Virus record (IMG/VR): IMGVR_UViG_2671180360_000002
Origin: a virus
Lineage: Duplodnaviria; Heunggongvirae; Uroviricota; Caudoviricetes
Strand: one strand, 5' to 3'
Length of the DNA stretch: 23,431 nt
Both the position numbers and the translations under genes were made by a program. Position 1 is the stretch's first letter. The number at the start of each line of letters is the position of its first letter. A model generated the notes under the pieces. It did no database searches, had not been told where the DNA came from, and saw only the letters and a program-made list of their open reading frames with translations. This document shows positions 1 through 2,467 of the stretch, piece after piece.

Positions 1-131
1 CGTCATAGCCGACTGGCCGATAAACCGGGTCGGCGAACTGCTCCCCTGGCGCGTAGCACTGCCGACTGAATAACACATCCCCGTCAATACGGTTCTTGCT
101 GCACGCTTACGGTTTTTGTGAAGCTGTCGGG

Positions 132-401
132 CTATTTCATCCCGCCAATATTTTCCCACCTCCCGTCAGCACGCAGAATTTGCAGCGGTCTTACCACGCA
201 CTGTATCTGCTTTTTATCCGCATCCAGTATCACCACCTGCGTGATTACCCTGTCCTGCTCCGGGATAATGCCATTCTCATCGGACTCCAGAATGTCTGCC
301 GGTCCCAGTCGCAGCTGTGCTGTAAGTAACTCCCCGTTTTCACGGTCATCATGCTTTCCGCAACCGCACAGACGCTGCATAAGTTTTTTTAGTATGTTCA
401 T
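132..401 (-). CDS. Hypothetical 89-aa protein coupled to the end of the side tail fibre gene
   Basis: ATG at 401-399 is preceded by AGGAGA with a 5-nt spacer, and lies 1 nt after the stf stop (TGA 405-403). The ORF ends at TAG 134-132. Translation MNILKKLMQRLCGCGKHDD... has no match I recognise. It sits where a tail fibre assembly gene would be expected but does not resemble lambda Tfa. Confidence 0.45.
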   Translation of the reverse strand: MNILKKLMQRLCGCGKHDDRENGELLTAQLRLGPADILESDENGIIPEQDRVITQVVILDADKKQIQCVVRPLQILRADGRWENIGGMK

Positions 402-402
402 G

Positions 403-1716
403 TCATTCTCCTGTTCTGCCTGTATCACTGCCCACTTCATCCAGCCCCTTAACATCCTGCCACGGCCCGTCACCAAACCTGACCTGCAAATGCCGAAAAA
501 AACCCTGAACCCGTGTGGTATCTTTGGGGTCAAGAAAGGTCAGTCCGGTGATGAGTGCGCCATCTGTATCCGGGAACCAGCCATGGCTGTTTGTCTCAAT
601 AATGTTTCCCGGCCCCAGACGGAACCGTATTTGCGTCTCCCCCGGGTCGCCCTTCGGCCCCTGAGGTCCGGTTGCCCCCACCGGGCCAGCCGCACCTGTT
701 TCTCCTTTCGGTCCCTGTGGGCCAGCCGGGCCTGCCGCACCGGTATCTCCCTTTGGACCCTGTGGACCTGCATTTCCCGTCAGACCGGTCTCTCCCCGCT
801 CTCCCCTGTCGCCTTTCGGTCCCTGTGGTCCTGCCGGACCAGCATCACCTGCCGGTCCCCGTTCGCCGGTTGCCCCGACAGGGCCGGTGTCACCACGCTC
901 TCCCTTATCCCCCTTCGGCCCCTGAGGGCCAGCGGGCCCCTGTTCCCCCTTTGGCCCGGGAGGTCCCACCACGGTGGGGATTCGGTTTACGGCGTCTTCC
1001 GCCGCTATCCTGCTTTGTTCCGCTGACTGTGCGCTTTCTGCTGACTCCCGGGCTTTTTCTGCTGCGGTCGTTGCATCCCTGGCTGCATTACCGGCTGCAC
1101 TTTCTGCCGTCTTTCTTGACAATTCAGCATCTGCTGCACTTTGTGATGACTCACTGGCTTTTTGAGCGGCCGCAGAAGCCGAGGACGAGGACGCATCCTC
1201 TGACTGCTTTGCTGAGGCTGCACTTTCTGCCGCCTGCCGGGCTGACTCCGATGCCTCCCCTGCTGAAGTGTCAGCATTTGCCGCGCTCTCTTCTGCCTGA
1301 CTGGCTGATATGCCGGCATTCCTCGCTGACGTCTCCGCCTCTCCGGCATTCTTCTTCGCCTCCTCTGCGTTACGCACCACCTCTTCCACCATCAGTTCAA
1401 AACGGCGCAGTGCCTCAGGACGGGCATCATCCTCCGTCATGGCACCGAGAAAATCATTCAGCGTACCGGGTCGGGAATCTTCATACACGGTGATGGTCCC
1501 GGCATGTGAAGGCGGAAAACCTTCAACCAGCAGGGTGACGCTGTACTGACCATGCTCAACATCCATGCTGTAACGTCCGGCTTCATCCGGATTTTCAGAG
1601 GCCACCGTGTTCACCACCACCGTGCTGCTGGTTCGTCTGGCCTTCAGCACAATGGTGCAGTTCTGTACTGGTTTTCCTGTGCCATCTTTAAGCACGCCAG
1701 AAATTTTTACTGTCAT
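403..1716 (-). CDS. stf: Side tail fibre protein (Stf-like) with a collagen-like Gly-X-Y repeat domain
   Basis: The N-terminus [22 protein letters not shown]... closely matches the lambda Stf N-terminus as recalled. An Ala/Ser/Glu-rich low-complexity segment is followed by about 37 uninterrupted G-X-Y triplets (residues about 251-360, nt about 637-966) and a short C-terminal domain. ATG at 1716-1714. Position downstream of lom matches lambda. Confidence 0.8.
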
Positions 1717-1728
1717 ACTTTTCCACCA

Positions 1729-1762
1729 ATAAAAAAAGCCCGCAGCAGTGACGCCACGGGCT
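1729..1762 (-). terminator. Putative rho-independent terminator between lom and stf
   Basis: On the minus strand a hairpin AGCCCG...CGGGCT (1737-1742 pairing with 1757-1762) is followed by a T-run (plus-strand A-run 1729-1737). The loop is long (14 nt), so strength is uncertain. Confidence 0.4.
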
Positions 1763-1867
1763 TCAGGACAGTGTAACTTTACGTTTCCTCAAACGCAGTT
1801 CACCCCATAAGGTGGATGAACCTGCGTATCATAACAATATTTACAGAAGATAAATCGGCGTCTGTTG

Positions 1868-2467
1868 TCAGAAACGGTATCCGATACCAACAATAAATGC
1901 ATCCGTTCGCCAGTCGCCACTACCGGAACCTTCATAAGCAAGGTCAATGGTCACGGATTCGGTCGGGTTAAACTGCACGCCAGCCCCCCACGCCAGAGAC
2001 GTGTTGCTGTGGCGACCGTCATCACTTCCGGTCAGCACATCGTGCGTTTTCCCCTTGTTGTCAGTTACGCGGAGATAATCCCCGGAGAAAGTCGACACAC
2101 GGCTGTAAGCCACACCCACCATCGCATACGCGCTGAACCATTCATTCACGCGCACAGACGGCCCCGCCATCACGCTGAACCAGCGGTTACGCACGGAATC
2201 TTCATGCCAGCGGGTATCGCTGTAGTGCGTTTTTTGCTCATCCTCAGCATTGGCATAACTGAAGGACGTAATCAGCCCCAGCGCGTCCGTAAACTCATAA
2301 CGGTATTTCACGTTAATCCCGTTCAGATTATCGCTGCCGGGAGCGTTCGTACGGGCATGAAGATACCCCGCGCTCAGTGTGGACTGATGTTCAGACGCCC
2401 ATGCAGGCGCACCGGATACGGACAGACAGATGGCTGCGGACAAAATGGCTGCACAAACTTTACGCAT
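1868..2467 (-). CDS. lom: Lom outer-membrane protein (Ail/Lom family)
   Basis: The 199-aa translation MRKVCAAILSAAICLSVSGAPAWASEHQSTLSAGYLHARTNAPGSDNLNGINVKYRYEFTD... is near-identical to lambda Lom as recalled, with an N-terminal signal peptide. ATG at 2467-2465. Position immediately downstream of J matches lambda. Confidence 0.93.
   Translation of the reverse strand: MRKVCAAILSAAICLSVSGAPAWASEHQSTLSAGYLHARTNAPGSDNLNGINVKYRYEFTDALGLITSFSYANAEDEQKTHYSDTRWHEDSVRNRWFSVMAGPSVRVNEWFSAYAMVGVAYSRVSTFSGDYLRVTDNKGKTHDVLTGSDDGRHSNTSLAWGAGVQFNPTESVTIDLAYEGSGSGDWRTDAFIVGIGYRF

Follow-up and report, generated by a model that had tools for sequence, protein, structure and literature searches.

A collagen-like side tail fibre of a lambdoid prophage and its co-encoded fibre-tip paralogue, a probable tip accessory factor

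Collagen-like fibres are found on most lambdoid and Shiga toxin (Stx) prophages of pathogenic Escherichia coli, and presumably influence which strains are reached by phages that carry toxin and effector genes. The closest described system is EPclA, in which an N-terminal domain (PfN), a coiled-coil segment (PCoil, 116 aa), a collagen domain (111 aa) and a C-terminal domain (PfC) follow one another (Ghosh et al., 2012; PLoS One 7:e37872, PMC3368898). Recombinant EPclA (rEPclA, from ECs2717) is a dumbbell-shaped trimer with a true collagen triple helix, as established by analytical ultracentrifugation, size-exclusion chromatography with multi-angle laser light scattering (SEC-MALLS), circular dichroism and electron microscopy, and its PCoil is a trimeric helical domain (PMC3368898). 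The entire rEPclA, a Col-PfC fragment and PfC alone are each trimeric when produced in E. coli without a partner gene, and PfC permits immediate refolding of the collagen helix after melting (PMC3368898). EPclA entries in O157 EDL933 and Sakai are 437 aa long in 13 of 15 cases (PMC3368898, Table 2), and the collagen domains surveyed range from 63 to 144 aa, each of them a multiple of three in length (Ghosh et al., 2012; PMC3368898). In the short-tailed Stx phage Sp5, the gene that follows the fibre gene (ORF68) has been placed among the non-essential late genes and suggested to be an "intragenomic reservoir" (Mondal et al., 2016; PMC5155283).

Here, we describe such a pair of genes at positions 132 to 1716 of IMG/VR virus record IMGVR_UViG_2671180360_000002 (Caudoviricetes), the whole 23,431-nucleotide stretch of which is called the window below. 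The locus encodes a complete EPclA-type fibre with a fixed small partner that, with good probability, serves as a fibre-specific tip accessory factor. Fibre and gene pair alike have been described before, being named in public annotation and in two papers, and the copy described here is a 94-99.9% identical instance. The window therefore adds nothing new on the fibre; the remaining, modest question is the role of a conserved, selected and expressed paralogue of the fibre tip, which would clarify how collagen tips are built and used without Tfa, the partner of the lambda side tail fibre Stf, and would inform fibre re-targeting.

The fibre gene and its self-trimerising tip

The fibre gene is encoded on the minus strand and divides as follows:

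403..1716 (-), gene for an EPclA-type collagen-like side tail fibre of 437 aa, coordinates including the stop codon (open reading frame (ORF) list, Pfam, PHROGs)
1318..1716 (-), PfN, lambda-Stf-like N-terminal collar/attachment domain, aa 1-133 (PF08400)
967..1317 (-), PCoil, aa 134-250 (117 aa), low-complexity segment rich in Ala and Ser, predicted to form a trimeric coiled coil
634..966 (-), collagen domain, aa 251-361 (PF01391 and triplet count)
439..630 (-), PfC, aa 363-426 (PF06820), C-terminal knob of the fibre, which trimerises, nucleates collagen and is the presumed distal tip
406..438 (-), acidic C-terminal fibre tail, without counterpart in the small paralogue (alignment)

Judged by these domain matches, the architecture is that of EPclA as defined by Ghosh et al. 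(2012): PfN, PCoil, collagen and PfC. PfN matches PF08400 at residues 1-133 (Pfam, E 2e-68), and the first 94 residues correspond to the Stf chain of the Ur-lambda collar and tail tip (PDB 9E7M/9MGH, E 8e-49), both of which bear out the lambda-like Stf N-terminus proposed in the original prediction, an earlier reading of the window made from its sequence. The same prediction counted about 37 uninterrupted Gly-X-Y triplets, and the longest stretch is indeed a single, unbroken run of exactly 37 (nt 634-966), with Pro at 18 of the 37 X positions and a DNA G+C content of 71% versus 55% across the window. Its C-terminal domain of about 75 aa was right in size, with 76 aa C-terminal to the collagen run, and wrong in being called unrelated, as this segment contains a match to PF06820 (Phage_fiber_C, residues 363-426, E 9e-36), a characterised trimerisation module. 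A profile search of PDB sequences for a solved PfC structure yielded chance matches only (E 0.1 or worse). The last 13 residues of the fibre carry a net charge of -3, and this acidic tail is disordered in a prediction that comes from a low-confidence model. The PCoil segment (residues 134-250) is 53% Ala+Ser and 6% Leu+Ile+Val by composition. The protein as a whole belongs to PHROG 366/3279 ("tail fiber protein") and is identical at 412 of 437 positions (94%) to H0004 of VT1-Sakai and at 410 of 437 (94%) to the side tail fibre of phage 434, and the gene order J, lom, fibre, small ORF is standard for lambdoid phages. From its family membership, the window fibre is presumably a dumbbell-shaped collagen trimer, the 94% identity being to H0004 and not to ECs2717.

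A length survey of viral contigs found 70 loci with the small ORF, 48 of which have complete fibres:

437 aa, 37 triplets, 34 of 48 complete loci
407 aa, 27 triplets, 6 of 48
440 aa, 38 triplets, 3 of 48
386, 400, 404, 434 and 441 aa, 20-37 triplets, 1 of 48 each

Since 437 aa is the most frequent length both in these viral loci and among the EPclA entries, the window fibre is the modal full-length form; it is intact, not truncated. The suggestion in the original prediction that the fibre might be truncated and non-functional is thus contradicted by four whole domains and a modal length. Its expectation that the repeat DNA would be prone to recombination agrees with a triplet number of 20 to 38 among the 70 viral loci and with the involvement of this DNA in deletions (see below). 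Repeat-number variation is real, and had been documented previously. The collagen DNA contains dispersed, imperfect GPQGPKG-encoding repeats with 61-77% identity to the reference copy, at spacings in multiples of 9 nt, and the PCoil DNA contains direct repeats at spacings in multiples of 3 nt, some of them 21 nt.

No Tfa-like protein is encoded downstream, as had been predicted: none was found in the window, nor past the window start in the 99.9%-identical chromosome NZ_CP189657. The 89-aa protein has no match to the Tfa family PF02413 in Pfam, PHROGs or NCBIfam, and a Tfa gene is absent downstream of the pair in the five related contexts read:

NZ_CP189657 chromosome, ISEc22, EspF-repeat gene, EspV remnant, tRNA-Ser
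VT1-Sakai, YkgJ-like gene, DinI, attachment site
Phage 434, NleB/NleC/NleH remnants
933W, hypothetical genes
O111 strain, DUF1076 gene, EspW

Neither PF03406 (Phage_fiber_2 repeats) nor a gp37-like tip family was detected in the fibre (Pfam, E up to 0.1). A missing Tfa is to be expected, because PfC trimerises alone and nucleates the collagen helix, properties taken from the experiments on rEPclA (ECs2717) and not from the window copy. The fibre would assemble without a Tfa-type chaperone, and it has no gp37-like tip of the kind that lambda Tfa serves. The fibre and the gene that follows it are a constant pair, different from lambda Stf/Tfa, a possibility that the original prediction had raised.

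The 89-aa gene, a conserved and expressed paralogue of the fibre tip

The small gene and its signals are arranged as follows:

132..401 (-), 89-aa stand-alone PfC paralogue, equivalent to Sp5 ORF68, 933W L0122 and phi24B gp59 (PF06820, PHROG 576)
407..412 (-), Shine-Dalgarno sequence AGGAGA for the small gene, within the last codons of the fibre gene (sequence reading)
348..401 (-), N-terminal module MNILKKLMQRLCGCGKHD, aa 1-18, basic amphipathic helix and Cys-Gly-Cys
318..347 (-), variable linker, aa 19-28
135..317 (-), PfC domain, aa 29-89

Between the fibre stop codon TGA (405-403) and the ATG of the small gene (401-399) lies a single base (402), with AGGAGA at 412-407, 5 nt 5' of the ATG; the Shine-Dalgarno sequence, the 1-nt gap and the 89-aa ORF had all been described correctly from the sequence. 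The 89-aa protein matches PF06820 at residues 28-89 (E 1e-36; 125.4 bits versus a gathering cut-off of 25; profile positions 1-64 of 64), belongs to PHROG 576 over its entire length, and is 35% identical over 62 residues to fibre residues 364-425 (BLASTP, E 2e-11). These matches indicate that it is a paralogue, or diverged duplicate, of the fibre PfC, a relationship that the original prediction overlooked. Aligned with the fibre PfC, it has no acidic C-terminal tail and instead has 27 additional N-terminal residues, of which the N-terminal module carries a net charge of +3. An AlphaFold2 (AF2) model has a helix at residues 3-11 with low predicted local distance difference test (pLDDT) values, pLDDT below 50 at residues 12-25, and a beta domain at residues 30-84 (block pLDDT 84-90); in structure searches, the nearest matches of the predicted fold are tail fibre proteins. 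The Prokaryotic Genome Annotation Pipeline (PGAP) names the two products in NZ_CP189657 "prophage tail fiber N-terminal domain-containing protein" (fibre) and "phage tail fiber C-terminal domain-containing protein" (small gene), and one phage 434 GenBank record labels the 89-aa protein "tail fiber assembly chaperone" by position. A chaperone function is only putative, and we found no paper with a functional test of the small protein.

The pair is tightly linked. The small ORF is present in 296 of 50,697 phage records and a fibre-type PfC likewise in exactly 296, with identical tallies in the eight largest organism-name groups, and the records that carry the pair span lambda-like siphoviruses and 933W-like podoviruses. 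In all 70 viral loci, the small ORF encodes 89 aa and begins after a 1-nt gap; 50 of 52 loci share the identical junction AGGAGAATGACATG. From 41 distinct E. coli DNA versions, the ratio of nonsynonymous to synonymous polymorphism (pN/pS) is 0.11 for the small gene versus 0.21 for the last 76 codons of the fibre. Within the small gene, pN/pS is:

codons 1-18, N-terminal module, 0.03
codons 19-28, linker, 2.4 (few sites)
codons 29-89, PfC domain, 0.07

The small gene is under strong purifying selection, its N-terminal 18 codons included.

A diverged pair is found in prophage remnants of Salmonella enterica (locus L089, 110-974), where a non-collagen, fibre-like ORF ends in a PfC and is overlapped by a 79-aa small ORF. 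The Salmonella and E. coli small ORFs are 53% identical with a ratio of nonsynonymous to synonymous substitution rates (dN/dS) of 0.19, share the invariant residues M1, I3, K5, K6, L11, G13, C14 and K16, and differ by a deletion of residues 17-26 in the Salmonella orthologue. The fibre tips of the two species are 38% identical, and all small-versus-fibre comparisons give 30-35%; by this pattern of identities, the duplication is old and both copies have been retained side by side. NleG/SopA effector genes adjoin the L089 pair. A stop codon interrupts the small ORF in two further Salmonella loci (L090, L092), and Citrobacter rodentium (L084-L086) has a decayed pair beside NleG and other effector genes. 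There the fibre is down to 161 aa, and the small ORF has lost 1 nt from an AAAAAA run and carries an internal deletion.

Among 1.84 billion representative proteins, a profile search found only 92 matches, mostly E. coli fragments; matches in giant soft-coral and mussel proteins and in a major histocompatibility complex class I fusion covered 20-35 profile positions and were treated as chimeric or chance. A scan of 185,579 species, with one genome for each, gave matches only in E. albertii and in a contig of 725 bp (L094) labelled Xanthomonas pisi DSM 18956, whose small ORF is 93% identical to the E. coli gene and most likely reflects E. coli or phage contamination. One collagen protein from a Logan metagenome contig (P0229, 565 aa) has at least 4 tandem repeats of about 90 aa with PfC-like second halves (VVVLDAD...ILRVRxADGTWxEIPAxKG), and the repeated matches in the soft-coral, mussel and fusion proteins, grouped with it as P0219, P0233 and P0235, are partial; such resemblances may stem from homology, contamination or chance.

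One feature bears on transcription of the pair:

1735..1764 (-), strong hairpin resembling an intrinsic terminator, directly after lom and 19 nt before the fibre start codon, with a 13-bp stem and a T run

No promoter-like site was found between this hairpin and the small gene. Given both, fibre and small gene are presumably read only from antiterminated late transcripts, that is, co-expressed late. Virion proteomics of phage phi24B (preprint, 10.64898/2026.04.10.717836) includes, among the matches listed, the peptides VITQVVILDADKK and ADGTWENIGGMK at ORF 39891-40295 ("gp59_start"), so the small protein is translated. In these purified virions, again among the matches listed, each gp59 peptide has 3 spectra versus 2267 for the fibre gp61 (10.64898/2026.04.10.717836). 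Scaled by other phi24B tail proteins (about 8-37 spectra per copy per 100 aa), this corresponds to a rough estimate of 0.3 copies of the small protein per virion. By the matches listed, the small protein is made, yet is not a stoichiometric virion component in phi24B.

Role of the small protein and alternative explanations

A fibre-tip accessory or assembly factor is the most likely role for the small protein. In the proposed arrangement, each fibre would consist of three chains, with the collar domain docked at the tail tip and followed by the coiled coil, the 37-triplet collagen helix and the PfC knob, which we infer to be the distal, host-binding end. The small protein would probably act at this tip through PfC-PfC contact, during or after assembly, possibly by capping, by preventing aggregation or by aiding tip trimerisation, and most of it would not be retained in the virion. 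Its basic N-terminal helix and Cys module (+3) may face the acidic tail of the fibre (-3). More specifically, and only tentatively, the 89-aa protein could represent a Tfa-independent class of accessory protein, a co-translated mimic of the tip domain whose helix and Cys-Gly-Cys bind the acidic tail or distal face of PfC, and which caps, registers or solubilises tips and then mostly leaves. If true, the mechanism would be tip-domain mimicry instead of a dedicated chaperone fold.

Several points weigh against a tip accessory factor. Since the recombinant fibre trimerises alone, the small protein is not needed for trimerisation as such, and since Sp5 ORF68 is listed as non-essential (PMC5155283), any role would be conditional or quantitative. 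A preprint makes the case that the tip of the related phi24B fibre is not what binds BamA. The phi24B proteomics (10.64898/2026.04.10.717836), in the matches listed, come from one preprint and cover one podovirus in a sample stored for six months. An AF2 model of the C-terminal 93 aa of the fibre reached a mean pLDDT of 53 and was left unused.

The best surviving alternative, although an unlikely one, is that the 89-aa protein is a stoichiometric subunit, a trimer of which docks on the PfC trimer of the fibre as the true distal adhesin, like gp38 on gp37 in T2-type phages. PfC forms trimers (PMC3368898), the tight translational coupling suggests near-equimolar synthesis, the basic module (+3) and the acidic tail (-3) are each peculiar to one partner, and the predicted fold is akin to tail fibre domains. 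The tandem PfC-like motifs of the 565-aa metagenomic collagen protein would further imply that such modules can succeed each other on one fibre, although that similarity extends over only about 35 profile positions. Abundance argues otherwise: by the listed phi24B matches, 6 spectra in total versus 2267 for the fibre give about 0.3 copies per virion, not the at least 18 that a subunit would call for. Among the 296 phage records, moreover, the small protein is 90-99% identical versus 80-99% for the fibre tip, and the pN/pS of its PfC domain is 0.07 versus 0.21 for the fibre tip, a degree of conservation unusual for an exposed adhesin; it is also listed as non-essential in Sp5.

Less probable still is the proposal of Mondal et al. 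(2016) that the small ORF is a mere intragenomic reservoir cassette, swapped in as an alternative fibre tip. Its paralogy to the fibre tip and rare natural recombinants speak for such a cassette. In one recombinant (protein P0060, locus L083 1-300, at a contig start), the collagen run is fused in frame to the small-ORF PfC at an 11-nt identity GGGACCGGCAG; an in-frame deletion of this type would give a fibre tipped by the small-ORF PfC. In another (P0175, 92 aa, E. coli contig), the small-ORF N-terminus and first PfC strands are followed by the second half of the fibre PfC and its acidic tail, a composition that implies exchange either between the two paralogues or from one prophage copy to another. 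In the deletions, which recur, the collagen run becomes joined to the "LGPAD" stretch of the small ORF through microhomology that codes for Gly-Pro-Ala, and from the recombinants observed it follows that Gly-Pro-Ala-coding DNA recombines. A similar deletion has recurred out of frame in O111:NM (L093 676-1879), where it yields a truncated, 352-aa fibre without PfC, an outcome that counts against a cassette. So does the N-terminal module, whose 18 codons a cassette would not need and which nevertheless has a pN/pS of 0.03 and is conserved to Salmonella, as do an invariant Shine-Dalgarno sequence and start-codon spacing and the translation of the protein itself, seen in its peptides. No full-length fibre with a small-ORF-type PfC end was found among the 120 homologous clusters listed out of 174, the fusion junction does not occur in one piece in the best 10 of 706 matching complete E. 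coli genome records, and the two domains, at 35% identity, are too distant for homologous exchange. The recombinants look like accidents in decaying prophages, not like a switching system.

Programmed frameshifting or slippage that would fuse the fibre to the small ORF was also considered and rejected, as the T7 run in question is not conserved and the fusion would destroy the fibre PfC. The frame of the small ORF is open for 46 codons upstream of its ATG. The run lies 101 nt before the ATG, at 496-502 in plus-strand coordinates, and reads as T7 on the minus strand within fibre PfC codons (GGT TTT TTT); among 52 loci it is T7 in 29, T6 in 9, T8 in 1 and absent in 13. Mondal et al. (2016) found no frameshift signal (PMC5155283). 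Such a T7 homopolymer could be a mutational hotspot for fibre inactivation.

It is very improbable that the small protein is a prophage "moron" unrelated to the fibre, such as an exported, lipoprotein-like exclusion or receptor-masking factor resembling Cor or Llp. Residues 11-14 read LCGC in E. coli and LFGC in Salmonella, a conserved L-x-G-C motif that resembles a lipobox, and the gene sits at a prophage end beside morons and type III secretion effector genes. The 13 residues before Cys14, however, include Lys, as well as Gln and Arg within the stretch LMQRL, and, read directly and with no dedicated predictor run, provide no hydrophobic signal-peptide core. The gene is coupled to a late gene that has a terminator before it, with no promoter-like site of its own, has no PADLOC match, and is found strictly together with PfC-tipped fibres, on siphovirus and podovirus backbones alike.

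Least credible of all is a fibre that is a truncated, non-functional remnant, in favour of which stand the IS element that flanks the prophage, the defective state of many O157 prophages and truncated gene variants elsewhere, such as the 352-aa form in O111:NM. Against it, all four domains are intact at the modal length, the same 437-aa architecture occurs in phage 434 (as an annotated side tail fibre) and in the record of Stx phage VT1-Sakai, purifying selection acts on the C-terminus of the fibre (pN/pS 0.21), and a recombinant protein of the same architecture forms dumbbell-shaped trimers (PMC3368898).

Surroundings and comparison with known systems

One further feature bounds the fibre module:

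1..110 (+), 3' end of ISEc22 (IS66-family), inserted 21 nt downstream of the stop codon of the small gene

In NZ_CP189657 (99.9% match), the ISEc22 transposase coding sequence ends at about window position 73; other genomes match the window only from position 110 on, and an IS66-type terminal GTAAGCG, read on the minus strand, lies at about 104-110. Past ISEc22, NZ_CP189657 continues with the EspF-repeat gene, the EspV remnant, tRNA-Ser and hyaAB, an effector locus at the prophage end. On the other side of the fibre gene, lom (Ail/Lom family, 1868-2467, minus strand) is intact in the window and encodes 199 aa; in NZ_CP189657, the first 2.5 kb are shorter by one base, and lom is annotated as frameshifted. 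A second terminator-like hairpin follows J (2497-2516), and the hairpins after J and after lom fit lom as a separate lysogenic "moron" unit. When 2.5 kb including lom served as the query, 5047 of 5426 complete E. coli genomes and 396 phage records matched.

Among known systems, collagen NC1, the T4 fibritin foldon and the Scl2 globular domain resemble PfC in that a small terminal trimeriser nucleates a triple-stranded shaft and obviates an external chaperone, and are unrelated to it in sequence. To our knowledge, in none of these is the nucleating domain also encoded by a separate adjacent gene. In two independent structure searches, the PfC fold predicted for the small protein matched Mu gpS with its chaperone gpU (PDB 5YVQ, 8JU3) best, and gpU provides a precedent for a small partner at a fibre tip. 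EPclA (ECs2717, and ECs2941 = VT1-Sakai H0004) has the same four-domain order and the same 437 aa as the window fibre, and nothing substantial differs; the window copy belongs to a prophage of an enteropathogenic E. coli (EPEC)-like strain beside tRNA-Ser, with ISEc22 just downstream.

The gene pairs of the short-tailed Stx phages (Sp5 ORF67/ORF68, 933W L0121/L0122, phi24B gp61/gp59) share the PfC tip (74 of 76 residues identical to 933W) and the 89-aa gene (83 of 89 identical), in the same position and with the same start offset past the fibre end. Their fibres differ in being of the EPclB type, 645 aa long, with two collagen segments and a Pf2 repeat, on a podovirus tail, and recombinant EPclB aggregates when produced alone; in those phages the fibre is essential, whereas a side fibre on a lambda-like tail would be expected to be accessory. 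With lambda Stf/Tfa, the window locus shares a homologous collar domain, the position after J and lom, and a lateral-fibre role on a lambda-type tail tip. Lambda Stf has Pf2 repeats and a gp37-like tip where the window fibre has a coiled coil and a collagen shaft, and the lambda partner is Tfa (PF02413), whereas the partner here is a paralogue of the fibre tip.

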